A stretch of 64,000 bases of DNA from an uncultured virus (IMG/VR IMGVR_UViG_3300048442_000810). Lineage: Duplodnaviria; Heunggongvirae; Uroviricota; Caudoviricetes. The stretch is taken from the IMG/VR virus record IMGVR_UViG_3300048442_000810; one strand, given 5' to 3'. The notes under the pieces are model-generated. The model was not told the origin of the DNA, did not search any database, and saw only the letters and a program-made list of their open reading frames with translations. Positions 8,501 through 45,522 of this stretch are shown here, one piece after another. The position numbers were made by a program, and so were the translations under genes. Position 1 is the first letter of the stretch. Each line of letters opens with the position of its first letter.

Positions 8501-11500
8501 AACCGGTGCTCAGGGTACACAAGGTATTCAAGGTAGAATAGGAACTACAGGTTCTCAAGGAGCAACGGGAAGTCAAGGTACTCAAGGAATTCAAGGTAGA
8601 GGAGGTCCACAAGGTGCTACAGGTACACAAGGAACTACAGGTTCGCAAGGTACTACCGGAGCAACAGGAAGTCAAGGAGCCCAAGGAACAAAAGGAACGC
8701 AAGGTGCCACAGGTTCTCAAGGAATAAAAGGTGATACAGGAAGCCAAGGTACTCAAGGGCTTCAAGGTAGAGCAGGAAATACAGGTTCTCAGGGTGCAAC
8801 AGGTTCTCAGGGAACAACAGGAACTCAAGGTGCTACCGGAAGTCAAGGTGCTACCGGAAGTCAAGGAACTACGGGAACACAAGGAACTACGGGAACTCAA
8901 GGAGCAACAGGAACACAAGGTGCCACAGGTAGCCAAGGTAGAACAGGTGCTCAAGGAACTACGGGAACACAAGGAACAACAGGAACTCAAGGTGCCACCG
9001 GAACTCAGGGAACAACAGGAACTCAAGGTGCCACAGGTAGCCAAGGTGCTACAGGTGCTCAAGGGCAAAAAGGTGCACAAGGTGCTACAGGTTCGCAAGG
9101 AACTACAGGAACTCAAGGTGCAACAGGTAGTCAAGGTATAAAGGGTGCTCAAGGTGCCACAGGTGCTACCGGAAGTCAAGGAACTACGGGAACTCAAGGT
9201 GCTACCGGAAGTCAAGGAACTACGGGAACTCAAGGAGCAACAGGTTCTCAAGGTACTACAGGTAGCCAAGGTAGAACAGGTGCTCAAGGAACAACAGGAA
9301 CTCAAGGAACTACCGGAACACAGGGTATAAAAGGTGACACAGGTTCACAAGGTACGCAAGGATTACAAGGAAGAGCAGGAAATACAGGTTCGCAAGGTGC
9401 CACAGGAACACAAGGAACTACCGGAACTCAAGGAGCAACGGGTGCTCAAGGAACTACGGGTGCTCAGGGTTTAAAAGGTAATCAAGGTACTACAGGAGCA
9501 ACCGGTTCGCAAGGTGCTACAGGTGCTCAAGGAAGAACAGGTACAGGTGGTACACAAGGAACAACAGGTTCTCAGGGTGCAACAGGAAGCCAAGGTATAA
9601 AAGGTGCACAAGGAACAACCGGAACTCAAGGAACTACAGGTAGTCAAGGAACTCAAGGTATTCAAGGTATAAAAGGTAATATTGGTGGAACAGGTTCTCA
9701 AGGTGCTACAGGTGCTCAAGGTACTACAGGTTCACAAGGTACTAGAGGAACACAAGGAACAACCGGAACTCAAGGAACAACAGGAGCAACAGGAAGTCAA
9801 GGGGCACAAGGAACTAAAGGAACTCAAGGTGCTACCGGTTCTCAAGGAACAAAAGGCGATACAGGTTCTCAGGGAACTCAAGGGCTTCAAGGTAGAGCAG
9901 GAAATACAGGTTCAACAGGTTCACAGGGAGCCACAGGTTCACAGGGAACAACAGGTAGTCAAGGTACCACAGGTTCACAAGGGGCTACAGGTGCTCAAGG
10001 GCAAAGAGGTGTAACAGGTTTAACAGGTAGCCAAGGTGCTACGGGTGCTCAGGGTACAACAGGTAGCCAAGGTACGACAGGTTCGCAAGGAACAAAAGGC
10101 GATACAGGTAATACAGGGTCGCAAGGTGCTACAGGTGCTCAAGGAAGAACAGGTACAGGTGGTACACAAGGAACAACAGGTTCTCAGGGTGCAACAGGAA
10201 GTCAAGGTATAAAAGGTGCACAAGGAACAACCGGAACTACAGGTTCAACAGGTTCACAAGGTGCTACAGGTTCGCAAGGAACAAAAGGTGCTCAAGGTAC
10301 GACAGGAACTACAGGCTCTACAGGTTCTCAAGGTGCAACGGGTGCTCAAGGACAGAGAGGTGTAACAGGATTAACAGGTAGCCAAGGTGCCACAGGTAGC
10401 CAAGGTGCCACAGGTGCTCAGGGTACAACCGGAACTACAGGTTCAACAGGAAGCCAAGGAGCAACAGGTGCACAAGGACAAAGAGGTGTAACAGGTTTAA
10501 CGGGTAGCCAAGGTGCCACAGGTTCTCAGGGAACAACCGGAACTACAGGGGCAACAGGTAGTCAAGGGGCTACAGGTGCTCAAGGAAGAACAGGAACAAC
10601 CGGTTCAACAGGTAGCCAAGGTGCAACAGGTTCTCAAGGTACGACAGGAACTACAGGTTCAACAGGTTCGCAAGGGACAACAGGTGCAACAGGTAGCCAA
10701 GGTGCTACGGGTGCTCAAGGGCAAAGAGGTACTACCGGTTTAACAGGTTCTCAAGGAGCAACAGGTTCACAAGGAAGAACAGGAACTACAGGTTCAACAG
10801 GTTCGCAAGGAACTCAGGGACTTCAAGGATTAAAAGGTACGACAGGTAATACAGGTTCGCAAGGTGCTACGGGTGCACAAGGACAGAGAGGTGTAACAGG
10901 ATTAACAGGTTCGCAAGGTGCCACAGGTGCTCAGGGTACGACAGGTACAACCGGTAATACAGGTAGCCAAGGAGCAACAGGTTCTCAAGGAAGAACAGGA
11001 ACAACAGGTAATACAGGTAGTCAAGGTACGACAGGTGCAACAGGTAGCCAAGGAGCAACAGGTGCTCAAGGACAGAGAGGTACTACCGGTTTAACAGGGT
11101 CGCAAGGTGCTACAGGTTCGCAAGGAAGAACAGGAACTACAGGTTCTACAGGAAGCCAAGGAGCAACAGGTGCAACGGGTTCAACAGGTTCGCAAGGTAC
11201 TCAAGGATTAAAAGGAACTACAGGTTCCACAGGTTCTCAGGGTGCTACAGGAACAACAGGTTCAACAGGAAGCCAAGGTGCTACAGGTGCACAAGGAAGA
11301 ACAGGAACAACCGGTTCAACAGGTTCGCAGGGTACTCAAGGATTAAAAGGAAATACAGGAAATACAGGTAGCCAAGGTACAACCGGTGCTACGGGTGGAA
11401 CAGGTTCTCAAGGTGCTACAGGTGCACAAGGACAAAGAGGTACTACCGGTTTAACAGGTTCTCAAGGTACAACAGGTGCTACAGGTGGAACAGGTTCGAC

Positions 11501-12638
11501 AGGTAGCCAAGGTACTACGGGAGCCACAGGTGCACAAGGAAGAACAGGAACAACCGGTTCAACCGGTTCAACAGGTTCGCAGGGTACTCAAGGACTAAAA
11601 GGAAATACAGGAAATACAGGTAGCCAAGGTACAACCGGTGCTACGGGTGGAACAGGTTCTACAGGTTCGCAAGGTGCGACAGGTGCTCAGGGACAAAGAG
11701 GTACTACCGGTTTAACAGGGTCGCAAGGAGCAACAGGGTCGCAAGGAAGAACAGGAACAACCGGTTCAACAGGTAGCCAAGGAGCAACAGGTGCTACGGG
11801 TGGAACAGGTGGAACAGGTTCGCAAGGTACTCAAGGATTAAAAGGTAATACGGGTAATACAGGTTCAACAGGTTCTCAAGGAGCAACAGGTGCTACGGGT
11901 GGAACAGGTGGAACAGGTTCTCAAGGTGCAACAGGTTCGCAAGGAAGAACAGGAACAACCGGTTCAACAGGTTCGCAAGGAACTACAGGTGCTACGGGTG
12001 GAACAGGTGGAACAGGTTCTCAAGGTGCTACAGGTGCACAAGGACAAAGAGGTGTAACAGGATTAACAGGTTCGCAAGGAACTACAGGTACAACGGGGTC
12101 TACAGGTTCAACAGGAAGCCAAGGTACTACGGGTGCTACGGGTGGAACCGGTTCGCAAGGTGCACAAGGTAGGACAGGAACTACAGGTTCAACAGGAAGC
12201 CAAGGTGCTCAAGGATTAAAAGGTAATACGGGTGGAACAGGTTCTCAAGGAACTACAGGTGCAACGGGGTCTACAGGTTCAACAGGTTCTCAAGGAACTC
12301 AGGGACTTCAAGGAAGAACAGGTACAACCGGTAATACAGGTAGCCAAGGTGCAACAGGTTCTCAAGGTAGGACAGGTACGACAGGTACTCAGGGTAGGAC
12401 AGGTTCAACAGGTTCAACGGGTTCTCAAGGTTCTACAGGAACAACCGGAACACAAGGTTCTACAGGAGCAACAGGAGGTTCGCCTGTTTTTAGTAGTGCT
12501 AGTTCTACCTCACTCCAAAGAAATGGATTTAATACAAGTACACCTTCTGCTACAGGTCTTGCTCCGGCAGGTTGGATAATAGTTACTGCTAGTAATGGTA
12601 CAAGTTATTACTTACCTGCTTGGATATATGATAAATAA
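5553..12638 (+). CDS. Giant collagen-like fibre protein (2361 aa)
   Basis: About 2280 residues of Gly-X-Y ([12 protein letters not shown]); 52-aa C-terminal domain ending [20 protein letters not shown]. Confidence 0.92.
5617..12479 (+). repeat. Degenerate 9-bp-period coding repeat (Gly-X-Y triplets)
   Basis: GGN-NCN-CAA / GGN-NCN-ACA periodicity throughout; boundaries approximate. Confidence 0.9.
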
Positions 12639-25959: not shown

Positions 25960-27321
25960 TTACTCTTTTTCGATTGGGAAATCGTGCTTTTTGAATAATT
26001 TTCTTGCACCTTGCTCGGTATCAAGTTGATGCTGAACAAACTCCGGTGATGGTATAAATAGGTTTGTTCTTTGGAATGTACTTCCTACCATATCGAACTG
26101 AGGCATTTCCTCTACCTTTTCTTTTGAGAAGCAATCATAATTAATCATCATTTGCTTGATGTATATTAACTTTGATTTAATTTGGTCTTGCCATTTAGGA
26201 TTTTTTCCTGCATTTGAAGTAGATACCGCAGATACAGAATTTCCTGATTGATTAGAAAACTCTGATTTTGATGGTTTACCATCTTTTATCCATCTTAATT
26301 TTTCACTTAAATGCTTACTTCTTTTCATTAAGAAATCACAACCATACTTATCATATCCTTTTTCTAAACTATCTACGAAATCAGGAGTTATATAATCCTT
26401 GTTTAGTTTTGGTTGTTTTACTTTGGCAATCAAAGGAGTTGCTATATCTATATATACATAGTCTAGTATTAACCTTACCGTTGTTAAAGGAAGTAAATTA
26501 TATTTTATTTTCGTAAAACCATCGAGTATGTACCCTTTTCCTTTTGGTGTAATAATGTAATTTTGAGATTGATATGGGTCAATAGTCGGTGTAAGTACCT
26601 TTTGATATACTTTACCTGTAGCTAATGTTCTATCAAATAAAAACGGCTCTAATATTTGTTCTTGATTTTCAGAAAATATTTGAAAATTCTTTATGTCGTA
26701 TGTCCTCTGAATTGTACTATACAAAAAGTCGTTGTAAGGGAAATTAGAAGTAGATATTACAGAAATATTGGGATTTGAAGGCAAAGTAGGTGCTGCGGCT
26801 GATGCTGAAGGATATACTTGTATTGGTAGCCAAATTGCTCCTCCGGTTTGACCATTTAATAATATAGATTCTACCCCATAATTATACTGAGCAGTTGTAG
26901 CAATATTTTGTGCAGCTATATATGCAGGGTCTACAATAACTCTAATTACAAAACTTGTGGATTCAAGACCATAAGGTCCATCTACTGTCCATTGTCCTAT
27001 TACGGCAAATGGGTTAGCTGCATCATTTAAATATGTAACTAATTCAGCAGTAGATATATTTGATAATTTTGGGTCGGCAAGAGAACCAACTATAAATGTA
27101 CTACCATCTGCTCTAAAAATTCTTATTGACACAGAACCATTAGAGGCTACAAGTTTAGGATTCCACCAATCACCAAGAGTATATATAGGTGACCAATTAG
27201 ATTCAAAGTTCCAAACAGTTTCCGTGCTTGTATTGGGTGCACCTAAAGCTGAAGTTTCAAAAACTGAAAATTCTTGAACTTCTGTAGAATTATTTCTAAA
27301 ACTAAATACCGATGCATCCAT
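25960..27321 (-). CDS. Large paralog of the capsid candidate with an inserted domain (turret/penton candidate)
   Basis: Y.DFL, Q.LE, QK.LTPTIDPYQ.Q, DGFT shared with 59778..60527; about 150-aa insertion after the first strands; C-terminal extension containing FSNQSG. Confidence 0.6.
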   Translation of the reverse strand: MDASVFSFRNNSTEVQEFSVFETSALGAPNTSTETVWNFESNWSPIYTLGDWWNPKLVASNGSVSIRIFRADGSTFIVGSLADPKLSNISTAELVTYLNDAANPFAVIGQWTVDGPYGLESTSFVIRVIVDPAYIAAQNIATTAQYNYGVESILLNGQTGGAIWLPIQVYPSASAAAPTLPSNPNISVISTSNFPYNDFLYSTIQRTYDIKNFQIFSENQEQILEPFLFDRTLATGKVYQKVLTPTIDPYQSQNYIITPKGKGYILDGFTKIKYNLLPLTTVRLILDYVYIDIATPLIAKVKQPKLNKDYITPDFVDSLEKGYDKYGCDFLMKRSKHLSEKLRWIKDGKPSKSEFSNQSGNSVSAVSTSNAGKNPKWQDQIKSKLIYIKQMMINYDCFSKEKVEEMPQFDMVGSTFQRTNLFIPSPEFVQHQLDTEQGARKLFKKHDFPIEKE

Positions 27322-32071: not shown

Positions 32072-32737
32072 TTAATTCATAATTCTAACATCATATATAT
32101 TCTGATTGGCGGCTATTATTCTTCTATTAACCTCATCCCAATTTATAATTTTAAATATATTTTTGATGTATTTCGTTCTGTCTGCATCGTATTTCAAATA
32201 ATATGCGTGTTCCCACACATCTACTCCTAATAAAGGATATGATTGATACTCAGGCATATATGGATTGTCTTGATAAGGGGTAGCTAGTATATTTGTACTG
32301 CCATCTCTATTCATTACCCACCATACCCATCCTGAGCCGAATCTTTTCTGCGATGCTTCAATAATAAATTCTTTAAATTGTCCGTAAGTACCAAAGTCTT
32401 GAATAATTTTAGCCAATGAAACACCGTGTGGTGGATTTGACTTTTTTGATGGATTAGGTTTAAGCATTTTCCAAAACATAGAATGATTTACATACCCTCC
32501 TCCATTATCTCTAATTTCAATTGGGTATCTATCTATGTTCTGCATTACTCTAATAACCGGGTCAGTAATATCATATTTGTCTACTGCTGCGTTAAACTTT
32601 TTTAAATACCCTAAATAATGTTTATTGTAGTGTATTTGCATAGTTTCCTCATCAATATATGGCTCTAAACCGTTATATTTATAAGGAAGCCTTACAGGAG
32701 AAAAATGTATTAAATCATAGTCATCATATTTATTCAT
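32072..32737 (-). CDS. sod: Fe/Mn superoxide dismutase
   Basis: LPY.Y..LEPYI..ETM..H..KH, NH..FW, FGSGW.W, DVWEHAYY. Confidence 0.95.
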   Translation of the reverse strand: MNKYDDYDLIHFSPVRLPYKYNGLEPYIDEETMQIHYNKHYLGYLKKFNAAVDKYDITDPVIRVMQNIDRYPIEIRDNGGGYVNHSMFWKMLKPNPSKKSNPPHGVSLAKIIQDFGTYGQFKEFIIEASQKRFGSGWVWWVMNRDGSTNILATPYQDNPYMPEYQSYPLLGVDVWEHAYYLKYDADRTKYIKNIFKIINWDEVNRRIIAANQNIYDVRIMN

Positions 32738-33166
32738 TTTCAAACTTTTTATTGCGTGTTAAGTTGCGTGTGGTAACATACGAACCTCTGAACAAAGCAA
32801 AAGAACCAATTACACACACGACTAACAAAGCACTTAGAACAACTTTATTATTCACTTATTACTTACACTTATAGATTAAGTAACCTAACATTCCAATGAT
32901 AATTACATTGTGAACATTGTTACCACCTAAAAAATCTGCACTTTTAATATCAAACATTTTTTTTAAATTTTTGGGTTAATACTCGTTTTATTTACTCTCC
33001 TGCAAGTTATATTTTTTAATGAGATTTTTAGCGATAGTTTGTAACTTCTTTTTATCGGCTCTTGCAGGTGGGAGATTGTCGTTAGTAATATTAAGTTTAG
33101 ACTCTTGCATACTTGCAATTGTATATTTTAAATTCTTAACGATTTCTCTTGCCCTATTTACACTCA

Positions 33167-33658
33167 CTACTTCTTCAATAATAAATAGGCACCTACACCT
33201 ATTGCTATATATAAAATTAAATCATTATTATCTTTTTTACCTTCAACCGGCTCCGGATTTACTACAACTACAGGAGTAGGTGTTACAGGAACTTCTGTAA
33301 TAGGCTCAGTAACTACATTTTCTACAACGGCAGGACTGTATGGTAAAATAGGGTCAGTTAAAATAGGGTCAATAACAAAAGGTTCATCTTCTTTGGTTAC
33401 TACCACAGGTGGACCTTTTACAATTGGTGTATTGCAAGGGTCTTTATCTAATGTCCATCCTTGAGGGCAAACTGTTCCGGGGAACATATTAGAAACCCCA
33501 TATCCTTTATCACACTTATTACATATTACAGTCTGAGTAACAGGGTCTACAGGTCTAGTTGGTACACTTGGCACCGAAACAGGTGGTCGATTAGTTGGTA
33601 ATACAACCCTACTTCGACCTTGAGTAGCTGCTGCTTCAAACCATAATTCATTTGACAT
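33167..33658 (-). CDS. Tail-anchored Pro/Val-rich protein
   Basis: MSNELWF leader, small 4-Cys domain, C-terminal TM then KK. Confidence 0.7.
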   Translation of the reverse strand: MSNELWFEAAATQGRSRVVLPTNRPPVSVPSVPTRPVDPVTQTVICNKCDKGYGVSNMFPGTVCPQGWTLDKDPCNTPIVKGPPVVVTKEDEPFVIDPILTDPILPYSPAVVENVVTEPITEVPVTPTPVVVVNPEPVEGKKDNNDLILYIAIGVGAYLLLKK

Positions 33659-33851
33659 ATCTTTTTATTTTTTATTATTTAATCTAATCCTACTAATTCA
33701 TCAATAGTTTTGCCATCGAAATATTTATCTTTTAAGAAATTATCATAAAAACCAACCAAGGCTACAATAGCTAATAAGTTAAAAGCTACTTGATATTCAA
33801 AAGGGGCTAAACCACCTTTTTTTAATTTATTGTATGACCTTTTATTCATTT

Positions 33852-34067
33852 TTAATCTTCATTTATATTCCAATCTTGCTGAGGCTTTACGGCAATTATT
33901 TTAGGTGAATTTTCTTCTTTTAATTCTTTTTTTACTAATTTTATTCTTAAAACATCTAAATATGTTTTTACAATATAAGAAACTCCTATAGCAATTGCAA
34001 TAGAACCTCCTACTGTTAGTATTTTTTGAAGATGACCTTCTTCTAAATAATCTTCCCACTTAGCCAT
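33852..34067 (-). CDS. Small membrane protein
   Basis: One TM helix. Confidence 0.6.
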   Translation of the reverse strand: MAKWEDYLEEGHLQKILTVGGSIAIAIGVSYIVKTYLDVLRIKLVKKELKEENSPKIIAVKPQQDWNINED

Positions 34068-34188
34068 TTACAATGTGTTTTTAGTTATTGTAATATTTTT
34101 TGCTATATATTCTTGGTAAATCATATAAGCACCGTACCCTGCAAGGGCATATTTTATTATTGAAAACATAGTATATTATTTTTATTTG

Positions 34189-34641
34189 TTATGCTCCACA
34201 AGAACCACAAGCATTACTCATATTTGAAGTTTGCCAATCAGTACCTTGTAGGTTTCCTGATGCATTACTCATATTAGTAGTTTGCCAATTTGTTCCTTGT
34301 AAATTTCCATTTGCACCATAGAATCCGGTTCTTCTTCTTCCCGGAATAGCTGCTAACCAATTGTTATCTGCACTAGGCAATGCTTTTCTATCTCTTGGTG
34401 GACCGTAAGGAATCATATATCCTCTTCTTGCTCCTGAAGCATTCTGAAACACACCACCTTCTTGCCACATAGTTTCTCTGTTTCTACCTGACTGTTGCCA
34501 ATTTGTTCCTGTAAAACTTGAAGTTGGTTCAGCACCTTCAATTGGTGGAACTGTACTTGTTTTTGGTTTAGAGAAATGCTCGTAAGCTGCATATGCTCCA
34601 AATCCTGCTAGTCCGTAAAGACCAATTTTCATTAAATCCAT
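34189..34641 (-). CDS. N-anchored protein with repeated NASG-type motifs
   Basis: FTGTNWQQSGRNRETMWQEGGVFQNASG shared with 56764..57153; GNLQGT.WQT.NMSNA.G twice. Confidence 0.7.
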   Translation of the reverse strand: MDLMKIGLYGLAGFGAYAAYEHFSKPKTSTVPPIEGAEPTSSFTGTNWQQSGRNRETMWQEGGVFQNASGARRGYMIPYGPPRDRKALPSADNNWLAAIPGRRRTGFYGANGNLQGTNWQTTNMSNASGNLQGTDWQTSNMSNACGSCGA

Positions 34642-34660
34642 TTTTTCTTTTTTTTATTGA

Positions 34661-35074
34661 TTAATAATTATTTAATTTTTGTTTGATAGGTATTTCTAAA
34701 ACTTCGTTACCTTTAAATGTATATTCATTTTCAGGGTACATCATTTGCGAGTTACCTAAGTTGTCTATTCCCCAAACAGGAAAATCCACATCTTTCATTG
34801 TGATTCTTCCATTTGGAATGAGATTATAAGGTCTGTTTAAATCCTTACTATCTCTTTTATAACCTGTAACAGAATATATGTCACCATTAAATCCTAATGA
34901 TGCGGCTCCTCCAATTGGTAAGCCTCCTATTACTCCACTACTAGGTACAGTCACAACATATGGTTGTGATTGTCTATTAGAATCAAAAAAGTCATCACCT
35001 TCGTTAAACCACGAGTTATTCGTGTCTAACAAATTAGATACATCAGCATAGCCATCTTTAATAATACTATCCAT
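34661..35074 (-). CDS. Hypothetical protein with leader motifs and a conserved-looking C-terminal module
   Basis: SWFNEG and GFNG motifs; IP...ITMK.V.FPV.GIDNLGN.QMMYP..EY.F.G module. Confidence 0.65.
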   Translation of the reverse strand: MDSIIKDGYADVSNLLDTNNSWFNEGDDFFDSNRQSQPYVVTVPSSGVIGGLPIGGAASLGFNGDIYSVTGYKRDSKDLNRPYNLIPNGRITMKDVDFPVWGIDNLGNSQMMYPENEYTFKGNEVLEIPIKQKLNNY

Positions 35075-35240
35075 TTAATCCTTTTTTGTCTAATTCTTCT
35101 TTTACTATTTTCTTTACTCCCGGTCTAAAAACATATATTTCTGCCCACATTTCAAGAGCAACAAAGGCAGCTACTGCTACTGTAACCGTACCCCAATTTA
35201 TTTTATCACCGAATAACTTCATATTACCTTTTATATATTA

Positions 35241-35609
35241 TTAAAACAAAAATCTTGAGCCTGTAGGAATATCATATACAAAATCTTCACCTTCACAATA
35301 AAATGCTCCTTTTTTGCCATTTTTATCTAGCCAAAATTTTGATACAGTACAAGGTGTTTTACCATTAATAAGTCCTTTTGTTCCAATATGTAATCTTTCA
35401 GTTGCTTCATATTTATCATCACGAATTAAATCAATTGCATTATTATTTTTTGCATCACTAATGTTGATTGAATTATTAAATGTTGAAGCTAAATTATCCT
35501 GCCCTAAAGTTGTTTCAGTTAATTCATTTTTATCTTTTTTAATAAATAAAAAGTAAGCTGCTACTGCCGCTACTGATACACCTATAATAATTTTTGTTTT
35601 CTTATCCAT
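35241..35609 (-). CDS. N-anchored membrane protein
   Basis: N-terminal TM. Confidence 0.65.
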   Translation of the reverse strand: MDKKTKIIIGVSVAAVAAYFLFIKKDKNELTETTLGQDNLASTFNNSINISDAKNNNAIDLIRDDKYEATERLHIGTKGLINGKTPCTVSKFWLDKNGKKGAFYCEGEDFVYDIPTGSRFLF

Positions 35610-35622
35610 TTTATTATTTTAA

Positions 35623-35766
35623 TTACTTCTTTTTATATATCATCATACCTGTCTTTGTTTTTGATGCCACATAGGTACTTCCGTTATAACTAAATGATTT
35701 TTTTCCGGCTTTTCTTGCCTTTTCTTTTGCTTTCATATAAGCATTCATTGCTCTTTTCTTTGCCAT
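35623..35766 (-). CDS. 47-aa basic protein, probable DNA-condensing (not in ORF track)
   Basis: MAKKRAMNAYMKAKEKARKAGKKSFSYNGSTYVASKTKTGMMIYKKK. Confidence 0.65.
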   Translation of the reverse strand: MAKKRAMNAYMKAKEKARKAGKKSFSYNGSTYVASKTKTGMMIYKKK

Positions 35767-35768
35767 AA

Positions 35769-35933
35769 TTATTTATTTTTAAATTTATTTTTATATATGT
35801 AAAATGCTAAACCTGCCACAAGAATTGCACCTCCTATATACATTAGATTCTTATTTCTTTTTTCCGTTTTTACTTCTTGAGTACGAGCATCAATAACTGC
35901 CTGTTCTTCAATAGTATGTTGTTTAGCCGCCAT
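35769..35933 (-). CDS. 54-aa tail-anchored protein (not in ORF track)
   Basis: ...NLMYIGGAILVAGLAFYIYKNKFKNK. Confidence 0.6.
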   Translation of the reverse strand: MAAKQHTIEEQAVIDARTQEVKTEKRNKNLMYIGGAILVAGLAFYIYKNKFKNK

Positions 35934-35936
35934 AAT

Positions 35937-36203
35937 TTATTTTTTAAAAATTCCCTTACTGTAGGCATAATATACACCTACTCCAATAATTGCTATCCAA
36001 GCTAAGTTTGGTAAGCCCATAAAACCTGCTTTTTTTGGCTTTACCTCTGCCGGTTTAGTTCCCACATTATCTCCGGGTCCTATTACTTCTGCTTCAGCTA
36101 ATAATTCTTCTTTTACTTCGGCATCATCTTTTCCTGCTCCGTATAAAGCATCATTTACCTTTTTTATATATTCCGGGTCTGTTCCTTCTGCGAATCTTGA
36201 CAT
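35937..36203 (-). CDS. Tail-anchored protein, paralog of 36324..36587
   Basis: Shared KKAGFMGLP.LAW.AIIG.GVYYAY.KG.FKK. Confidence 0.7.
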   Translation of the reverse strand: MSRFAEGTDPEYIKKVNDALYGAGKDDAEVKEELLAEAEVIGPGDNVGTKPAEVKPKKAGFMGLPNLAWIAIIGVGVYYAYSKGIFKK

Positions 36204-36209
36204 AATTTT

Positions 36210-36317
36210 TTATTTTTTTCGGGTATGACTTTTTACTGTCTTACCTTTTCGTTTATAACTCTTGATTATTGTGCAAGATTTACTTCCACTTTTTTTTACT
36301 GCTTTTTTCTTTGCCAT
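36210..36317 (-). CDS. 35-aa very basic protein (not in ORF track)
   Basis: MAKKKAVKKSGSKSCTIIKSYKRKGKTVKSHTRKK. Confidence 0.6.
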   Translation of the reverse strand: MAKKKAVKKSGSKSCTIIKSYKRKGKTVKSHTRKK

Positions 36318-36323
36318 AATTTA

Positions 36324-36587
36324 TTATTTTTTAAACACTCCTTTTGTGTAAGCATAATATACACCTGCACCAATAATTGCAACCCAAGCTAAAGTTGGCA
36401 ATCCCATAAATCCTGCTTTTTTTGTTTTACCATCTAAAACTTCTGTGGTAGTAGATTCTGCTGCTACTTCAGTTGTAGGTTCAGGTGTTGCAATTTTAAC
36501 ATTATCACTAGGTGCTTCTTTAAATTGTTCTGCCAATATTTCTTTTCTTTCTGCTACGAATTTTGGGTCTATTTTTTTTGATGCCAT
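36324..36587 (-). CDS. Tail-anchored protein, paralog of 35937..36203
   Basis: Shared C-terminal 32 aa. Confidence 0.7.
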   Translation of the reverse strand: MASKKIDPKFVAERKEILAEQFKEAPSDNVKIATPEPTTEVAAESTTTEVLDGKTKKAGFMGLPTLAWVAIIGAGVYYAYTKGVFKK

Positions 36588-36605
36588 TTTTTATTAATTA
36601 ATTAT

Positions 36606-37169
36606 TTATTTATTTCTGTTTCTTAACATATATGCTATAGCTAGTGCTCCTGCTACTGCTACTCCAAAAATTAGGAGGTTATTAGTTGTTTTAGCTTTTT
36701 CTTCCGCCATATCTCTTGACAGTATCATATCGGTTTGTGCTTTACCTAATTCTATAGCAATTTGTTTTCTTGCGTTTAACTCTGCTAGTTCTCTATAGAA
36801 TCTTTTATCTTCCTTGTCATACTGCTCTTGCCTTCTTGCCATATCACGACCAAAAGCTGCGTTTTTAGCACCTATAAATATACCTGCTACTGATTGTGCA
36901 ACTGCTGAAACTGCCGTTGCAATACCTACTAAAAGTGTAGCTGCTATATTAGAGAATCTTCCCTCCTCTACCTTGCTTTGAAAAATTATTATTCTAGCAA
37001 TAAAATCTTCATCTAGCATATGATATGCTACTGCTTTATTTACTTCATCTACAGGAGTATTAACAGGCAACTCAGCATAACCATTCTCATTAAGCCATTG
37101 AATTACCAAAACTTTATGGTCAAGAATGAATCCGGCTAAACCCTTAAATGCTAAATTATTTGTTTTCAT
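36606..37169 (-). CDS. Prodomain + hydrophobic peptide + coiled coil + TM protein
   Basis: FSN then IAATLLVGIATAVSAVA, charged helix, C-terminal TM; paralog of 37169..37726. Confidence 0.7.
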   Translation of the reverse strand: MKTNNLAFKGLAGFILDHKVLVIQWLNENGYAELPVNTPVDEVNKAVAYHMLDEDFIARIIIFQSKVEEGRFSNIAATLLVGIATAVSAVAQSVAGIFIGAKNAAFGRDMARRQEQYDKEDKRFYRELAELNARKQIAIELGKAQTDMILSRDMAEEKAKTTNNLLIFGVAVAGALAIAYMLRNRNK

Positions 37170-37726
37170 TATTTCATTATTTTTATCGCTATATATACAA
37201 CTACTCCACCTGCTAATGCTATATATAATGAATTCATTCTCGTATTTTCTCTATTTTTTTGTATCAAATTTTCTTCTTGTTGTAGATAATCTGATTGTGC
37301 TAAAAGAAATTGTTTTTGCATTTCTTTTCTTTGTAAAAATGCTATTTCATCTCTTGTTTCTTTATTTAAATACCTAGACCTAAAACCTTCTCTAAATATT
37401 TCTTCACGCATTTTTTTGTTTCTGCGTATATCTTGTTGTACCGCAATTCCTGCCGTTACAACTAATAAACTTCCTATTATCCAAGCAGCCGTTGCAGTTA
37501 GAGTAAAAATTGCATTTTTATATTCATTTTCTTCAGTAGCTATTTCCATCAATCCGTTTTGTAACTCTTTATTGGTTGAGTTATCAATAACTACTTCATT
37601 TACACTTGCAATAGGTGCATTTAAAGGCAGCGATGCTATCCTTAACCTATTGATTAGGGATATTACATCATTTTTATTTTGCAGTAAAAAAACTGCTAAA
37701 TTAGATATTGCCTTTTCTTTGTTCAT
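37169..37726 (-). CDS. Prodomain + hydrophobic peptide + coiled coil + TM protein
   Basis: YKN then AIFTLTATAAWIIGSLLVV, charged helix, C-terminal TM. Confidence 0.7.
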   Translation of the reverse strand: MNKEKAISNLAVFLLQNKNDVISLINRLRIASLPLNAPIASVNEVVIDNSTNKELQNGLMEIATEENEYKNAIFTLTATAAWIIGSLLVVTAGIAVQQDIRRNKKMREEIFREGFRSRYLNKETRDEIAFLQRKEMQKQFLLAQSDYLQQEENLIQKNRENTRMNSLYIALAGGVVVYIAIKIMK

Positions 37727-37727
37727 T

Positions 37728-38225
37728 TTATACTGTTGCAGGTTTCTTTTTTAATGCTACATATGCTACCACTCCTATAACTAATGCCCCAACTCCTAAA
37801 GCAACATAGGTTAATGTTTTATCTTCTGTTTTTCTTGCAGCACTTTTCAAATTTGCTTCTTGAAACATTTTTTCAATATTAGCATCAAATTCTGCTGCTT
37901 GTTCATCTAATTTTTTCTGAGAACAGTCTAGTTCATCCCATTTATTTTTAAAGTCTAATCTTCTATTTTCTAAGGCTCTTGAATTTCTTGTGATTACTCT
38001 GTCTTTAGCACCACTATTAGCATTTTTAGTCAAATCCTTATCAATAACACCAATAGTATCATCAATGGTATCACAATCCATCTCATCTTCTAACTTGTAC
38101 TTATCGTTATATCTGTCTACTGCCTTGTTATATCTTTCTTTTTCTGCTTTTTTAGGTGCAAAAAAATCCTTGAACCAAGTTCCTCCTATAAATCCGGGGT
38201 GATTAAACCATAATTCTTCTTGCAT
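37728..38225 (-). CDS. Tail-anchored helical protein, NHPGF family
   Basis: LWFNHPGFIGGTWFKD; paralog of 53866..54459 and 55912..56601. Confidence 0.7.
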   Translation of the reverse strand: MQEELWFNHPGFIGGTWFKDFFAPKKAEKERYNKAVDRYNDKYKLEDEMDCDTIDDTIGVIDKDLTKNANSGAKDRVITRNSRALENRRLDFKNKWDELDCSQKKLDEQAAEFDANIEKMFQEANLKSAARKTEDKTLTYVALGVGALVIGVVAYVALKKKPATV

Positions 38226-38229
38226 AATT

Positions 38230-38451
38230 TTATTTTTTTAATTTACTATATATTATTATTGCTACTATCGCAAGAGATATTCCTCCTACTAATTTTAAAA
38301 CTGCACTTCCAATACTATTATCTTCTTCTTTAAATTCATCTATGCTTCCAACTGCATTAGAGTAATTTTCTTGTTTACATTTACCTCCGCACTTACATTC
38401 ACCTCCATTTTGGCAAGGGTGATACTCTTTATTTTTGCATCCACAACTCAT
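38230..38451 (-). CDS. Tail-anchored protein with Cys-rich (metallothionein-like) N-terminus
   Basis: 6 Cys in 25 aa, YSNAVG, C-terminal TM. Confidence 0.65.
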   Translation of the reverse strand: MSCGCKNKEYHPCQNGGECKCGGKCKQENYSNAVGSIDEFKEEDNSIGSAVLKLVGGISLAIVAIIIYSKLKK

Positions 38452-40718
38452 TACTTTCTTCCTAAAAATATACCAAGAAGAATACCTGCAATTCCTCCTA
38501 TCAGCATTGTGTTATGCTCTTCATTTCCTTTTTTCTTTACCTCTCCACCTTTTGCATAACCTCTTTCAGCTTTTATTTCTTCAATAGCATCTTGATATGT
38601 TTCATCCGTAGGAGTTCCATCTTCATTATATCCATCAAGTTCAGGATGTTTTTCAAGCCATTCTATTATTTCTTGATGTGATATTTCTCCACCTTTTGCA
38701 AAATCTTCTTTATCAAGTTCTAATGCCTCTAATAATTCTTCTTTAGTGTTTATGGGTGTCGGTGTATTCATAGAATTTCCTAACCATATTTCATAAAGTT
38801 CTTCTCTTGATGGGTTGTTTTCAAGAACTTCCTCTATGTGCGAAACATCAATACCATCATTATTCATATCATCTATATACATACGAACTATCTCCTCACT
38901 ATTTACATTATCCCAATCTCCCTCGCCCTTATCTTGTAAATAATCATAAAATTCTCCAAAAGACATATCCTTAATAGAGCCACCTTTAGCAAAGTCCAAT
39001 TTAGGTGTCCACTCTACTACTTTATATTGAATAGAACTACTCATTCTTTGCAGTTTATTTTTTTCGTCTTGAGCATCTTTGTATGATAGATATTTTTTGC
39101 CACCCGTTAAAAACTTCTCATCTTTCCATTTTGGAACTCCTAAATCATATTTACTTTTTTCTTGAATTTTGTAAATCTTTCCTTGTGTTTTACCACCTTT
39201 AGCAAATCTGTTTTTTTCTTCTACATATTTTAAACCTTGATTAGATAGTTTATATTCTCCTTTATTTATTAATCTTGCCCAATTTTCAGCTTCTTTTTTT
39301 GTTTTATAAGAAGGGTTTGAGTATGTACTTCCATATTTTTTTAAGTAGTATTTTCCGTTAGTTCCATAAACAGATACTTCCCCACCTTTTGCAAAAGTTT
39401 CTAAATTTTTAACCATTGCTTCAACTCTTCTTCCATTTGTTGCTTCAACTATTGCCACACCCCCATCATCTCCATCTGCTCTTAATTTTATTATTTCTTC
39501 TACTTTACCACTTTGTCCTTTTCCCATACCACTTATTGAATGTGGGAAATTGTCTTTTGTTGCTCTAACCACATCTCCTACTTCAATTTTACCACCTTTA
39601 GCATAAGATTGAACACCATCTTCATCTACTTCCCAAAGATAACCTTGTTGACTCATAATTTGAGATTTATATGCACCATCTTCAATACTTGAAAGTGCAA
39701 TTTCTAATGCCTCACTATATGTTTTTACTTCTTTATCTAAACTTGGCTTATTGCTATTGTATCTTGCTTTACTTTTCCAAACCTCAACTGAAAAAGGACT
39801 ATCTTTTTTAGGCTCTACTTCGCCACCTTTTGCGAACTCTAATTTCTCTTTTTTATAGACTTCATATGGAAATAAAAATTGAGCAGAATACAACTTCATT
39901 TCACCTTTTTTCCAAAGTTCTATTTCTTTTTCAGTAGGTGCAGAAAACTCATCCCAATCACTACCTTTTTCGTGCTTTACAAGAGCACTTGTTTGAATAG
40001 TATCTTCATCAACATAAAAATCCTCTTCTTTCATATCTGCGTATGAAACAAAATCATTTAAAGTTTCAAATAAATCTTTTTTATTAGTAAACTTAGTTTT
40101 ATATGGAAAATCATTTTCACCTAAGTAATATGAATGAAATTGGTCTTGCTCTCCCTCTTCATAAGAATCTTCGTAAAAAGTAACATCAGCACCCTTTATT
40201 TGGTATGTTTTTCCAACTTCCCCACCTTTTGCATAATCTTCGTGTTCTATTCCAAAATTATCATAATCCTCAATATCGTTTTTACTATCTATTAAGCCCT
40301 CTGATTCTTCGCTAATGTTTATTCCATAAATCTCTATTTTATCCCAATTTTTCTCTGCAAACGACTTGCTTACTTCTTGAAATTTATATCCATCAGAGAA
40401 TGTTATAAAACCGCCTTTAGCAAATTTTGCTTTTTGTTTCTTAGCATCTTGAACGGTTTTGTATATGCCTCCTAAATCTTTCTTGATGTCTTTAATTTTG
40501 TTCTCTCTGTCCTTAATAGATTTCTTTTCTCTATCAATGCCACTTTCTAAATTATTAATTTGATTTTCGGAACTTGTAATATCTTTACGAATGCTTTTTA
40601 TCTCATCTCTACCTTCATTGATTTCTTTATCGCCTTTTTTAGCAACATTACCCATAGCTTTAGCAAGTTCAATTTGACCTCCTCTTTCGTAACTATTATT
40701 TCTATTTCCTCTTTTCAT
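38451..40718 (-). CDS. KGG-linker polyprotein (755 aa) with membrane anchor
   Basis: Nine [FY]AKGG plus one YERGG separating unrelated modules of about 45-130 aa; ends MLIGGIAGILLGIFLGRK. Confidence 0.8.
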   Translation of the reverse strand: MKRGNRNNSYERGGQIELAKAMGNVAKKGDKEINEGRDEIKSIRKDITSSENQINNLESGIDREKKSIKDRENKIKDIKKDLGGIYKTVQDAKKQKAKFAKGGFITFSDGYKFQEVSKSFAEKNWDKIEIYGINISEESEGLIDSKNDIEDYDNFGIEHEDYAKGGEVGKTYQIKGADVTFYEDSYEEGEQDQFHSYYLGENDFPYKTKFTNKKDLFETLNDFVSYADMKEEDFYVDEDTIQTSALVKHEKGSDWDEFSAPTEKEIELWKKGEMKLYSAQFLFPYEVYKKEKLEFAKGGEVEPKKDSPFSVEVWKSKARYNSNKPSLDKEVKTYSEALEIALSSIEDGAYKSQIMSQQGYLWEVDEDGVQSYAKGGKIEVGDVVRATKDNFPHSISGMGKGQSGKVEEIIKLRADGDDGGVAIVEATNGRRVEAMVKNLETFAKGGEVSVYGTNGKYYLKKYGSTYSNPSYKTKKEAENWARLINKGEYKLSNQGLKYVEEKNRFAKGGKTQGKIYKIQEKSKYDLGVPKWKDEKFLTGGKKYLSYKDAQDEKNKLQRMSSSIQYKVVEWTPKLDFAKGGSIKDMSFGEFYDYLQDKGEGDWDNVNSEEIVRMYIDDMNNDGIDVSHIEEVLENNPSREELYEIWLGNSMNTPTPINTKEELLEALELDKEDFAKGGEISHQEIIEWLEKHPELDGYNEDGTPTDETYQDAIEEIKAERGYAKGGEVKKKGNEEHNTMLIGGIAGILLGIFLGRK

Positions 40719-40720
40719 AA

Positions 40721-41758
40721 TTATCTTCCTATAAAAAATGCACCAAGTAAAATACCTGCTATCCCTCCTACAAGTAAAGTTTGATTATTATTATCTTCAG
40801 TATTATCAACTTTTTTTGCTTCTACTTTTTCAATTTTATCATCACATTTATCTTTAGTGATAGTTGCTTTTCTTAAAGCACCTTTTTCCTTCTTTAGTTT
40901 AGCAATTTCTTTGTCTTTTTCTCTTCTTAGCTTAACATATCTATCTCTGTCAATTTTACCTTCAACAGAGCCTCCACGAGCCATTTTTATTTTCTCTATG
41001 CTTCTAACTCCATTTGCAAGTTGCTCTCCTTTGTTAAAATCTTCAATAGATTTATAATTAGTTTCAAAACCTTCATTATGCTCATTAATAAATTCCATAG
41101 CTTCTGATTTTGTTAGATATTCAGTAGCATCTTCATCATCAGATTCACGATATACATATCCACCTTTAGCCATTTTTCTTTTGCCTTTATCCATTGTAGA
41201 TACATCAGCATACTTTCTTCTACCCATAGATTTTTCCATTCCTGCACTTTCTCTCATTCTACTGTCTAAAGATTGAGATTTTTTTCCTCTGTTTCTTTCT
41301 CCTATGCTTTCTCTATCTCTGTCATCATAACCCTGAGTTTTTCCACCTTCCATAAACATTCTATCGCCTTTGTCCATAGTGTCTACACTTGAATATGCTC
41401 TACGACCTAGATTTTTATTAGCTGCTTTGCTTTCATCTCTTCGGTCTTTTAATGTTTGTGTATAATTGCTTTCTCTTCCAAGTCTAGTTCCTAAATCTTC
41501 ATTTAACTTGTCGTTATACCCTTGTGGTTTATCGGTTTCTCCTCCTTTAGCCATCTTTTTCTTATTTGCTATTTGTTGCATATTTAAAGCAAATTGTGCT
41601 CTTTCACGAGTTCTTTCTGAAAAGTCAGTTGGATTATCTTTTACTTTTTTAGCAAAATCTTGAACGGACATACCTGCATCAGTAGCTTGTTTAGTAAACG
41701 CACCAACAGTTCCTTTTTTTTCCATTTCTTTATCTACATTTTGAATCCAATCTGCCAT
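40721..41758 (-). CDS. KGG-linker polyprotein (345 aa) with membrane anchor
   Basis: MAKGG x2, FMEGG, MARGG; two paralogous QGY.D...TMDKG modules; ends LLVGGIAGILLGAFFIGR. Confidence 0.8.
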   Translation of the reverse strand: MADWIQNVDKEMEKKGTVGAFTKQATDAGMSVQDFAKKVKDNPTDFSERTRERAQFALNMQQIANKKKMAKGGETDKPQGYNDKLNEDLGTRLGRESNYTQTLKDRRDESKAANKNLGRRAYSSVDTMDKGDRMFMEGGKTQGYDDRDRESIGERNRGKKSQSLDSRMRESAGMEKSMGRRKYADVSTMDKGKRKMAKGGYVYRESDDEDATEYLTKSEAMEFINEHNEGFETNYKSIEDFNKGEQLANGVRSIEKIKMARGGSVEGKIDRDRYVKLRREKDKEIAKLKKEKGALRKATITKDKCDDKIEKVEAKKVDNTEDNNNQTLLVGGIAGILLGAFFIGR

Positions 41759-41762
41759 ATTA

Positions 41763-42266
41763 TTAATTTTTTTTCATTATTAAATAACCTAAAACTAAAA
41801 CAACTGCTCCAATACCTAAATACATTGCCATATTGCTATCATCATCTGAGCCTGATGTAACACCTGCTGCTACACTATCATCGTTTACATCATAAGAGGT
41901 CAAGTCATCTGAATCAACTCCTAAATCTTCATCTATAACTTCATCAATCTCTTCTTGATTACTTGGTTGTTCCGAAATAGTCATTTCTGATAATTCATCA
42001 TTAAAATCACTAAGATTCATAGATGTACCACCTTTTACTGTAACTTCTTTTCCGGGGTATCGTGAGTCTGATGGTCCGTGTTCTCTTAATGTTGCACTAT
42101 ATCCATCTCTTACTGAAATATGTGATGCATCATCATTTGGAAAATCAGTATCTCCTAAAAAAGTACCTTCTCCAAAATTTTCTTGCCATCCCGGAAATCT
42201 ACTATCACCATCTCCGTGTTGAGATAATGTTACTGCTCCTGTTTGTCCAAACCAAATATCACTCAT
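41763..42266 (-). CDS. Beta/gamma-crystallin-like domain with C-terminal anchor
   Basis: Duplicated L..HG..DSR.PG unit, FPNDDAS.I.V..G...TL.EH and FNDELS Greek-key-like motifs; acidic linker; TM. Confidence 0.6.
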   Translation of the reverse strand: MSDIWFGQTGAVTLSQHGDGDSRFPGWQENFGEGTFLGDTDFPNDDASHISVRDGYSATLREHGPSDSRYPGKEVTVKGGTSMNLSDFNDELSEMTISEQPSNQEEIDEVIDEDLGVDSDDLTSYDVNDDSVAAGVTSGSDDDSNMAMYLGIGAVVLVLGYLIMKKN

Positions 42267-42367
42267 ATCTATTTATTTATTAAAAACATTTTTGTTCATA
42301 TACCATAATCCTACGGCTATAATTGACCAAAATACTATTCTAGGTTTTCTTTTCTTTTCTTTTGCCA

Positions 42368-42848
42368 TTATCCTTCAGGGTTAAATGTTGCTTCCGGCAA
42401 CTCCGGTCTTGGAGGTGCAGGAGCCATTGGAGCCTCTGCTACAGGTGAAGGCACAGTGTGGGGTAGGAGTATAGTCTACTTCTCCACCGTGGTCAAACTC
42501 TGCTCCATCTTCTTTCTCAAAGAATAATTTATATCCTACATAAACAATTCCTAAAAGCACCAATGCATCAAAAATCTCTCTCTTGTTTCTTTGAAAGAAA
42601 TTTCTTTTCCTAGACAATTCTTTTTTCTTGTATTGTTTTATGCTACTTTTTTGCATATCCTCAACCCAATCTGAATTTCCATCATCGCTGACTTCCATTT
42701 TTCCATCAACGACATAAGTTTCTTCAGAATTTTTTTGAGTGTCAGAGCCTTTAGGTTCAGATAGTTTCTTGTCTATAAGACCCCATCTTTCCTGTTCTTC
42801 TCTGTCATCTACAAAGCCATTACTTTTAAAACCTGCATCTATACTCAT
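42368..42848 (-). CDS. Membrane protein with probable frameshift near 42458
   Basis: Track ORF stops at 42381, but the +1 frame gives Pro-rich TVPSPVAEAPMAPAPPRPELPEATFNPEG ending in TAATG coupling; contains FDHGG. Confidence 0.6.
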
Positions 42849-43012
42849 AACTTAATTATTTTTGTTCTCTTGCTACATTTCTACCTTTTTGCCACCCATA
42901 TCCAAGTGCAAAAAACATTGCTCCTGTTAACACAAGAGAAACTGCGAAAGTGCCAATATTCATTTTTTGTTTTGCCATTTTATTATTATTTAATTGTTAC
43001 AATTATTTATTA

Positions 43013-43399
43013 TTAAAGCATTGCATTATTATAATACTCTTCACTTGCCTGACCATATACTGCATTAGGGTACATTGATTTAAATGCTTCAAATGGTGAT
43101 TGTTCTGATTTTAATGCTGCTTCGGTGTTTGAACCAAATTTTCCATCAACTTTTAAACCATAACTTCCTGCATCATTTAAAAATCTTTGTAAATTTTCTA
43201 CTTTTACTCCTCCGCTACCTTTTTTTAATGGAAAGCCTCTTCCTGAAAATTTATCTACTGTTTTAATATTAGGGCTATTATTTGTTCCATTATTACTTGG
43301 GGTAATTCTAACTCTACTAGGTCTTAATAGATAATATAGACCTACTCCTGTTCCGAGTACACCTACAACTATTAATGTTATTTTTAAGTTTTTATTCAT
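43013..43399 (-). CDS. N-anchored peptidoglycan-binding (PG_binding_1) protein
   Basis: LKKGS.G..V..LQ..LN......VDG.FG..TE.AL. Confidence 0.8.
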   Translation of the reverse strand: MNKNLKITLIVVGVLGTGVGLYYLLRPSRVRITPSNNGTNNSPNIKTVDKFSGRGFPLKKGSGGVKVENLQRFLNDAGSYGLKVDGKFGSNTEAALKSEQSPFEAFKSMYPNAVYGQASEEYYNNAML

Positions 43400-43404
43400 A
43401 ATTA

Positions 43405-43854
43405 TTAATCATTAAACCACATTTGGTCATTATATCCTCCAAAACCTTGTTGATTAAAATTAGAGTATGATTCTCCATCAAATCCTATACTATTTCTTCC
43501 TCTAACGGAGCCACAACTTGCAGGGCTATTACTATAATTACCCAAAGAACCACAGTTACCTTGAGATGTTAGTGTTGTAAAGTTTGAACCCGGCATTGGC
43601 ATTCCCACACCTTGACATCCTTGTGGATAGCAAAATCCTGTGTAGGTACAACTTCCATCATCTGTATTTGCTCCCGGACTATAATTGTTTGCACTAGAAT
43701 CAGTACAACCGCTAATAGTATATTCACACGGACAATCAACCGTTGGTGGTGGTGGTGGTGGTGGTACATTTATATTTGCTGCTGCATTAAAGAATTCATC
43801 TCTTGAAATGTAAGAGTTAAATCCATCTTGGTCGTTATTTAGTAAAAAAGCCAT
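43405..43854 (-). CDS. Cys-rich protein with GCTD repeat, no TM
   Basis: GCTD..A.NY.P.A..DDGSC; C-terminus YSNFNQ.GFGGYNDQMWFND shared with 50168..50626. Confidence 0.7.
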   Translation of the reverse strand: MAFLLNNDQDGFNSYISRDEFFNAAANINVPPPPPPPTVDCPCEYTISGCTDSSANNYSPGANTDDGSCTYTGFCYPQGCQGVGMPMPGSNFTTLTSQGNCGSLGNYSNSPASCGSVRGRNSIGFDGESYSNFNQQGFGGYNDQMWFND

Positions 43855-43872
43855 TTTTTTTTATTTTTTATA

Positions 43873-44538
43873 TTAATAATCCCCCATCATAAAGGTTCCA
43901 TCAAATCCTCTTGAATATGGTACACCTGTATTTACATTAGTTACTACATTTCCTGAATTAGGAGAAGTAGAACATCCGACTGTTGCATTAGGATTATAGT
44001 TATCTGCCAATGGGTCAGTACATCCTACTATTTGAACAGGAGGATATTGACAACTTCCATCATCTGCAACTGCTAAAGAATCATAGTTTAATGCTGAAGG
44101 GTCCATACATCCTGCTATTGGCATTGGTGGTGGATTTAATTGACAAGTTCCATCATCACTATTTGCATTAGGATTGAAATTAACTGCCTGTGGGTTGGTA
44201 CACCCAAATACTGTGTAAGTACAACTTCCATCATCTGTATTTGCTCCCGGTGCAAAATTATTTGCATTAGAATCAGTACAACCTAAAATTTTTTGTGGAG
44301 GTGGCGGTAAAATAGTTATTGGGTCATCCGTATCTAGTGGAGGAAAGGTTGGTTGTGGTGTTACAATTAATGGCTCCTCTACATATATTGGCATTGAAGG
44401 CGGAACAACAATTGGCTCTGTTGGTGGCAATGTTGGTTCGGTATTGCTTACTATAGCAACCGTTTCATCCTTTTTCTTGTTAAGAAGTAAGTAGGCAGCC
44501 ACACCGATGCCTAATAATCCCAATAATTTGTTGTCCAT
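43873..44538 (-). CDS. N-anchored protein with four GC[TM][DN]..A.N[YF]...A..DDG.C repeats
   Basis: Repeats visible (the fourth is partial); ends RGFDGTFMMGDY. Confidence 0.75.
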   Translation of the reverse strand: MDNKLLGLLGIGVAAYLLLNKKKDETVAIVSNTEPTLPPTEPIVVPPSMPIYVEEPLIVTPQPTFPPLDTDDPITILPPPPQKILGCTDSNANNFAPGANTDDGSCTYTVFGCTNPQAVNFNPNANSDDGTCQLNPPPMPIAGCMDPSALNYDSLAVADDGSCQYPPVQIVGCTDPLADNYNPNATVGCSTSPNSGNVVTNVNTGVPYSRGFDGTFMMGDY

Positions 44539-44544
44539 TTTTCT

Positions 44545-45240: not shown

Positions 45241-45242
45241 AA

Positions 45243-45521: not shown

Positions 45522-45522
45522 A

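Follow-up and report, generated by a model that had tools for sequence, protein, structure and literature searches.

The penton and the major capsid protein of tailless double-stranded DNA (dsDNA) viruses usually share only their fold. The PRD1/PR772 vertex comprises the penton P31, the spike P5 and the receptor-binding protein P2. Another design is described for virophages, where the mavirus penton is a jelly roll into which a domain of 139 residues is inserted, the insertion lying between strands D and E in the mavirus and Sputnik pentons (PMC6048507). In the Helvetiavirae/Singelaviria, the accounts cited here describe two obligatory major capsid proteins (VP4 and VP7 in SH1, HCIV-1 and HHIV-2, with VP9 as the penton; VP16 and VP17 in P23-77), a turret of ~75 residues in the D-E loop, and a penton devoid of insertion but with separate spikes (PMC6441041, PMC6414509, PMC8812541, PMC12714852); the turret loop is specified for SH1 VP4 and P23-77 VP17 (PMC6441041). 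Portoglobovirus SPV1 is described as having one single-jelly-roll major capsid protein and separate vertex capsomers (PMC8812541).

The window considered here, 64,000 nucleotides of an uncultured virus (bases 1-64000 of a record of 71,399 bases rated 85% complete), encodes three related proteins of 154, 249 and 453 aa. The probability that the 453-aa protein is a vertex (penton-like) protein sitting at the five-fold corners of the shell is estimated at about 0.55. Paralogy of the three is established by sequence comparison, whereas the wider view, in which copies of a single predicted jelly roll serve different roles in the particle, is favoured to a similarly modest extent.

Like the virophage penton (PDB 6g41), the 453-aa protein is, by prediction, a single jelly roll with one large variable beta-rich insertion (139 residues versus ~145 here), and in both cases an FtsK/HerA-type ATPase and a protease, here a candidate, are encoded alongside; however, the insertion of the 453-aa protein lies apparently in the C-D loop and not in D-E (PMC6048507). 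The single eight-stranded jelly-roll base is predicted for residues 1..291 (Z 5.9-6.6), but the D-E insertion of the virophage/adenovirus-type penton is not found. The protein would work in the manner of a penton built from a jelly roll and an inserted domain, with another loop apparently in use. With the Helvetiavirae, the window virus has in common dsDNA, single-jelly-roll shell proteins (predicted here), many predicted membrane proteins, an insert-topped paralog, plus an ATPase of FtsK/HerA type, with a presumed packaging role here (PMC6441041, PMC6414509, PMC8812541, PMC12714852). It differs by having one universal putative major capsid protein, a second full-core paralog being present in 2/19 relatives, unless the two-gene counterpart of the 453-aa protein in relatives (pieces A and B, see below) is itself the second major protein. 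SPV1 resembles the particle proposed for the window virus in its coat and separate vertex capsomers but infects archaea and is described without a packaging ATPase (PMC8812541); it gives no sequence match, and neither the SPV1 VP4 chain nor those of VP16/VP17 and VP4/VP7 are among the best 50 fold matches listed (Z >= 4.5). Likeness to PRD1/PR772 is limited to a fold match of the 249-aa core (PR772 chain O, Z 5.8) and to linear genomes with inverted terminal repeats, assigned to 4/47 relatives, whereas PRD1 has a double jelly-roll coat and a penton and spike that are separate proteins and not one split barrel.

Genome setting and host

The three proteins are also found letter-identical on a 104,631-base contig, and related IMG/VR records reach 102 kb. 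Among 47 related records, 19 were read whole, picked mainly by length with the addition of two having the closest major protein; counts of relatives given below refer to these 19 unless otherwise stated. The host is presumably bacterial, since wall hydrolases, RecT and ArdA are recognized among the genes. The virus is likely tailless. No HK97-type capsid or portal family was found among 91 ORFs compared with PHROGs (in a record 85% complete), and the sole terminase-ATPase match in that scan is a weak one (E 2e-4) given by a 272-aa ATPase. The particle is probably membrane-containing; 28/120 ATG ORFs of the record end in a hydrophobic segment followed by a basic tail, which is suggestive of an internal membrane. 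A long series of small proteins with such C-terminal ends, many carrying an aromatic-x-N-x-x-G tag, occupies 33000..59700 (minus strand).

The 272-aa ATPase (62810..63628, minus strand) is of FtsK/HerA type, with Walker A GKKGIGKT, Walker B LLIED, and RH and HFQ motifs which we take to complete the FtsK/HerA-type signature; its DUF87 (HerA) match is under the cut-off (E 9e-4). It is single-copy in 19/19 relatives and its role is likely genome packaging. A protein with an HExxH motif (HEFSH; 57165..57995, minus strand), also single-copy in 19/19 relatives, is a candidate maturation protease. Neither the 249-aa protein nor the ATPase has a match among 50,697 annotated phage records, and no cultured phage with this protein family was found. 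A search of the accessible literature returned no publication describing these proteins, nor any jelly-roll penton in split or permuted form, though the supplements of large metagenomic surveys may list such genomes.

Three paralogous proteins

An earlier note, made from the sequence alone, had designated three dispersed ORFs as capsid-like paralogs, namely 472..936 (plus strand, 154 aa), 59778..60527 (minus strand, 249 aa) and 25960..27321 (minus strand, 453 aa). Their positions are correct and their kinship is confirmed by pairwise matches and profile-profile comparison. Alignment of the 154-aa with the 249-aa protein spans the entire core, with 49/156 identities (31%, E 3e-25). The 453-aa protein matches the 249-aa protein across its residues 189-275, corresponding to the second two-thirds of the core (28/88 identical, E 2e-8), and the motifs PTIDPYQ.Q and DGFT, which the earlier note placed in the later part of the core of the 453-aa protein, are found inside this alignment; its match to the 154-aa protein has an E-value of 4e-4. 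At the level of family profiles, the 453-aa and 249-aa sides are related with a probability of 98.4 over 112 columns. Compared with every ATG ORF in the record (71.4 kb), each of the three matches just the others at E < 0.001, and a fourth paralog, sought in this record, was not found.

Outside this set, Pfam and PHROGs give no family for any of the three proteins, the PDB gives no sequence match, BFVD gives no clear match (best E 2e-4, TM 0.22), and the 249-aa protein is without a named family in the ESM Atlas. The capsid-like character put forward in the earlier note thus stands by predicted fold and gene context, and does not stand as a sequence match to any known capsid. While the two components usually share only the fold in other tailless dsDNA viruses, here the putative penton and major capsid protein share sequence too, and because of this the step from coat to vertex protein would be traceable by alignment and tree.

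The 249-aa protein, a candidate major capsid protein

The 249-aa protein, composed of an acidic leader (residues 1-52), a jelly-roll core (54-210) and a tail, is likely the major capsid protein, because it is universal, single-copy, highly conserved and encoded beside the FtsK/HerA-type ATPase. Its homologue is single-copy in 19/19 relatives, where it belongs to the four genes present in all, and 870 relatives are retrieved at E 0.001 or better (90% clustering). In two records with inverted terminal repeats (G009 and G011), it is the most conserved of these four genes, the remaining three being those for the ATPase, for the HExxH protein and for an acidic protein of low complexity. Over 15 records, the median identity is 74% for the major protein versus 30% and 31% for pieces A and B. 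The leader contains the aromatic-x-N-x-x-G tag at residue 41, and the tag precedes the core in 81/121 family members; a cut near it would give a start roughly matching that of the 154-aa paralog.

The AlphaFold model of the 249-aa protein has a mean pLDDT of 71. All top Foldseek matches are jelly-roll or related beta-sandwich chains, and the VIA comparison gives a best Z of 6.5, with PR772 chain O (124 aa), which we take to be the PR772 penton, at Z 5.8 (rmsd 3.5, 98 aligned). Similar values are obtained for TNF, C1q, nucleoplasmin and carbohydrate-binding modules, and the fold scores of both models, middling throughout (all Z < 8), may reflect only a common sandwich. Upstream of the gene, ~500 bases (60528..61045, minus strand) are free of ORFs of at least 60 aa; a short ORF for a membrane peptide may lie there, together with a structured leader.

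The 154-aa core-only protein

The 154-aa protein is a core-only duplicate of the 249-aa protein, restricted to its lineage and under purifying selection. It is encoded in 12 metagenome loci with identities of 53-100%, and dN/dS is 0.04-0.09 in 6/6 pairs computed. In the tree, its branch is long and falls with the major proteins, inside the fork containing those of the window clade. Extra full-core copies are found in 2/19 relatives. The protein is likely a leaderless duplicate acting as a minor lineage-specific component of the shell or of its assembly, and is unlikely to be an obligatory second coat protein. One relative (G005) has three extra full-core genes in all and encodes a 397-aa ORF with two full jelly-roll cores in tandem (G005:C1:17225-18418, L073), reminiscent of a double jelly roll.

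Architecture of the 453-aa protein

The 453-aa protein, for which sequence, model and tree point to a jelly-roll paralog with an inserted domain and a likely vertex role, is read in five segments, all on the minus strand. Residues 1-22 (27256..27321) correspond to the two initial strands of the jelly roll, interpreted as B and C, and share homology with the beginning of the piece B gene in relatives; residues 34-177 (26791..27222) to an inserted beta-rich domain with two short helices; residues 182-291 (26449..26778) to the remaining part of the barrel, which includes PTIDPYQ.Q and DGFT and equals piece A of relatives; residues 308-400 (26122..26400) to a helical hairpin module with an FSNQSG tag at residue 355; and residues 401-453 (25963..26121) to a conserved C-terminal family segment of low model confidence. 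The hairpin module is common to another ORF of the window, 47945..49432 (match at 49001..49186, minus strand, E 4e-13), and was not found in the 19 relatives. The ATG of the 453-aa gene overlaps the stop of an upstream CHAP/DUF2272 wall-hydrolase-like gene.

The order of first strands, insertion and rest of core is not visible by BLAST and is backed by family conservation, by shared predicted strand and helix order and by fold matches. The 56 family members compared keep residues 1-25 and 183-297, whereas the block between them varies. The AlphaFold model (mean pLDDT 74) shows residues 1-22 and 186-291 as one jelly roll around a separate domain (34-177; pLDDT 83-95), indicating that the insertion is, by prediction, a folded domain. 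Structure prediction, which the earlier note had proposed as a check and which was run on the 249- and 453-aa proteins, gives one order in both models: two strands, gap, strand, helix, long strand, short helix, hairpin and remaining strands. The insertion starts after the second strand, at the site where the 249-aa protein exceeds the 154-aa protein by 10 residues and has its Gly/Ala loop, in agreement with the site anticipated from the sequence.

Fold comparison of model residues 1..291 retrieves jelly rolls, namely the grapevine fanleaf virus coat (Z 6.6, rmsd 3.7, 111 aligned; VIA) and the second barrel of PRD1 P3 (Z 5.9, rmsd 3.1, 101 aligned), while a wide VIA search with the whole model yields generic helical-hairpin chains. 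The top Foldseek match of the model is the mavirus penton (E 2e-5), but with TM 0.13-0.20 and rmsd 23 A, and this penton is absent after re-alignment from the best 50 matches listed; as far as the model can tell, the match is one of like architecture and not of superposition. For the inserted domain (34..177), the best fold match is the FliD cap domain (Z 5.9, rmsd 3.7, 105 aligned), a lead only, and no recognized binding module was found in the window's own domain. DUF5901, an ESM Atlas lead for residues 1-180 (12% of members), was rejected: no DUF5901 match exists in the genome and no publication was found.

Concerning the loop involved, the insertion appears from the models to sit in C-D and not in D-E, because only two strands precede it; the strand letters are a reading of strand order and are not derived from coordinates. 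Covariation pairs 146-190, 152-158, 130-177 and 133-201 fit the C-D site, with strands D=126-135, E=146-151, F=157-162, G=175-178, H=189-195 and I=200-210 and hence the insertion after C, although the signal is noisy and its effective depth of 73 too shallow to fix the topology. In a jelly roll, the C-D loop is at the same end as the termini, and in upright barrels that end faces the membrane. Consequently, either the barrel lies differently or the inserted domain is internal.

Split and apparently permuted forms in relatives

In most relatives the counterpart of the 453-aa protein appears to be encoded by two genes. Piece A is defined as a gene whose match to the iterated core profile starts only at about position 30 of 143, as it does in the 453-aa protein. 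It is present in 16/19 relatives, single-copy, and matches residues 182-292 of the 453-aa protein with a probability of 99.1. In a tree of 58 rows and 114 columns, whose bootstrap is not fully settled, the 453-aa family and piece A lie on one side of a 99/99 branch and the 154/249-aa pair on the other. On this alignment-based evidence, the 453-aa protein is placed in an old second lineage, and the three proteins are not read as versions of one role.

Piece B is a gene near A whose product opens with the two-strand motif L.V.NNT...V.ILG and continues into a small domain. It was identified in 15/16 piece-A records (10 as profile seeds and 5 found by the profile), the partner being unconfirmed in one. 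In 13 records B is separate, either directly after A (5 records), past one papain-like gene (7 records) or 4 kb further on (1 record); in two more, G026 and G044, A and B form a single fused protein of 290 aa in which B follows A. At further A loci, B starts 43-459 bases downstream in 20/20 cases, 6 of them from records already counted and some near-identical. A search of 1.84 billion representatives gives 406 B relatives, the best 150 of which comprise 46 with B alone, 101 with extra sequence and 3 A-then-B fusions; a B-then-core fusion is absent from these 150. In G002, a 179-aa gene upstream of A resembles B but not significantly (E 0.06 and 0.025). A frameshift artefact was considered for the A/B split and rejected: the A stop and B start overlap cleanly in 3/5 junctions examined, and a whole gene lies between in 7 records.

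Residues 1-180 of the 453-aa family are colinear with B (probability 82, E 1e-5, 102 columns, 0/40 shuffles as high). The inserted domain alone resembles B's domain weakly (probability 5, 1/40 shuffles as high, or 18/60 with a shallow alignment), and the match of the first two strands of the 249-aa family to B is not significant (5/40 shuffles). The window protein thus appears to be B-then-A in one chain, most sampled relatives having A and B apart and some joining them as A-then-B. A circular permutation would be expected to yield an A-then-B fusion, given that a jelly roll has its first strand next to its last. No locus for the 453-aa family was found in IMG/VR. Three of the 19 records lack A and B, one being 37% complete and two rated 100% complete; the latter end 14 and 24 kb past the major gene, while elsewhere A lies 10-38 kb past it, and early contig ends could explain the absence.

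The gene intervening between A and B in 7/19 records (e.g. L125:18677-19150 and L069:9705-10220) encodes a papain-like protein with an H...NCEH motif and a C-terminal membrane anchor; one member resembles the PPPDE peptidase PF05903 (E 9e-5, under the cut-off).

Piece B itself varies widely, from 113 to 731 aa among the 20 close A loci, where close relatives can differ (113 versus 608 aa), and its extensions reach about 1,200 residues. NHL/SBBP or DUF5122 propellers or DUF285 repeats are recognized in 8/25 long B proteins tested (3/5 from records and 5/20 from the library), and the other 17/25 match no Pfam family. In L091:13716-17441 and P0311-P0315, B is fused to 850-1,170 further residues that are candidate adhesin or fibre domains; the L091 ORF, P0311 and P0315 have no Pfam match. 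Piece B matches neither the flagellin IN motif nor any family in more than 2/92 members, and the FliD likeness accordingly stays a lead. A barrel that seems to occur whole, split and circularly permuted in natural genomes offers a ready test of strand complementation in jelly rolls.

Role of the 453-aa protein

The assignment of the 453-aa protein to the vertex relies on its single copy, its rapid divergence and the exchangeable extensions of its split forms. The earlier note had supposed that the loop carries a turret or spike domain, as in hetero-capsomers or pentons. Its penton side is retained, in that the protein behaves like a vertex or spike component (single copy, fast-evolving, with propellers on partner halves); its hetero-capsomer side is not supported, the insertion lying apparently in C-D and not D-E and a second full-core paralog existing in 2/19 relatives. 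In such an arrangement, the 453-aa protein, or A and B together, would be a turret-bearing second major capsid protein mixing with the 249-aa and perhaps the 154-aa protein across the faces, like VP17/VP16 of P23-77 or VP4/VP7 of SH1. Single jelly rolls combined with an FtsK/HerA-type ATPase are the Helvetiavirae recipe as outlined in PMC8812541, homology of the core with the major protein is clear, a property that any subunit of the same lattice would need, and two full cores are fused in tandem in G005. However, the genes are 33 and 59 kb apart in the window, A and B diverge far faster than the major protein, the known turret occupies another loop (PMC6441041), extensions of up to ~1,200 residues on B are hard to fit at hexon copy number, and the scarcity of a second full-core paralog also counts against it; this arrangement is considered unlikely.

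Slightly less probable still is a minor internal or single-vertex part, i.e. a jelly roll under the shell or at one packaging or entry vertex, with the inserted domain and hairpin facing the membrane. Such a location accords with the membrane-proximal C-D loop of upright barrels known in general, with a C-terminal hairpin that recurs in another protein of the window and contains the tag present in the major protein's leader as well, and with translational coupling to the upstream CHAP/DUF2272 wall-hydrolase-like gene, but propellers and DUF285 repeats attached at the cut point and exchanged between close relatives fit an exposed position better. The least probable reading, held to be improbable, removes the family from the shell altogether: the proteins would be oligomers resembling TNF/C1q or nucleoplasmin that make up knobs or fibres, with the actual capsid gene located in the missing part of the genome. 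TNF, C1q, tail-needle knobs and nucleoplasmin are indeed among the top fold matches and the record is rated 85% complete, with the same proteins on the 104.6-kb contig; against this, the 249-aa paralog is the most conserved universal gene in G009 and G011, which have inverted terminal repeats.

Under the preferred vertex assignment, the 249-aa protein would form the faces of a particle that has no tail, probably contains a membrane and is filled by the FtsK/HerA-type ATPase, and an ancient duplicate of it would have become the corner piece. The loop after the second strand of this piece would have taken up a domain of ~90-145 residues, creating a natural cutting point. The window clade would have kept one chain (first strands, domain and core), whereas in most sampled relatives two chains would share the barrel, B giving the first two strands and the domain and A the other strands, with B presumably binding A and completing its barrel by strand complementation; a few relatives would join the halves in reverse, as a circular permutation. 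Cutting at the loop would free the C-terminus of the domain, allowing propellers and repeat domains to be attached and exchanged as in a host-binding tip, and the inserted domain may project outward as a spike base with a possible part in host binding. An outward spike needs a barrel orientation other than upright, since the C-D loop would otherwise face the membrane.

More tentatively, and with less confidence than the vertex assignment itself, these data may delineate a widespread lineage of bacterial viruses with linear dsDNA genomes of 70-105 kb, in which a large shell is made from one single-jelly-roll protein, the vertex barrel is assembled from two polypeptides by strand complementation, and the C-D loop acts in evolution as a hinge, left intact, cut or circularly permuted, and also as a socket in which host-binding tips can be fitted and exchanged. 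If so, the barrel orientation would be unlike that of the upright barrels of PRD1- and SH1-like viruses. The variable tip on piece B is a candidate host-range determinant of the family.

Other features of the window

The ORF 32072..32743 (minus strand) contains a DVWEHAYY motif, which presumably reflects resemblance to Fe/Mn superoxide dismutase; its product is without a PHROGs match. At 5553..12638 (plus strand), a 2,361-aa collagen-like protein of Gly-X-Y repeats, mostly G-[AST]-Q and G-[AT]-T, is a candidate for a very long fibre. Two independent contigs have near-identical starts (L143:1-60 and L149:1-60), which precede the 154-aa gene by 930 and 1,120 bases, and a linear genome end is probable ~460 bases before window position 1.
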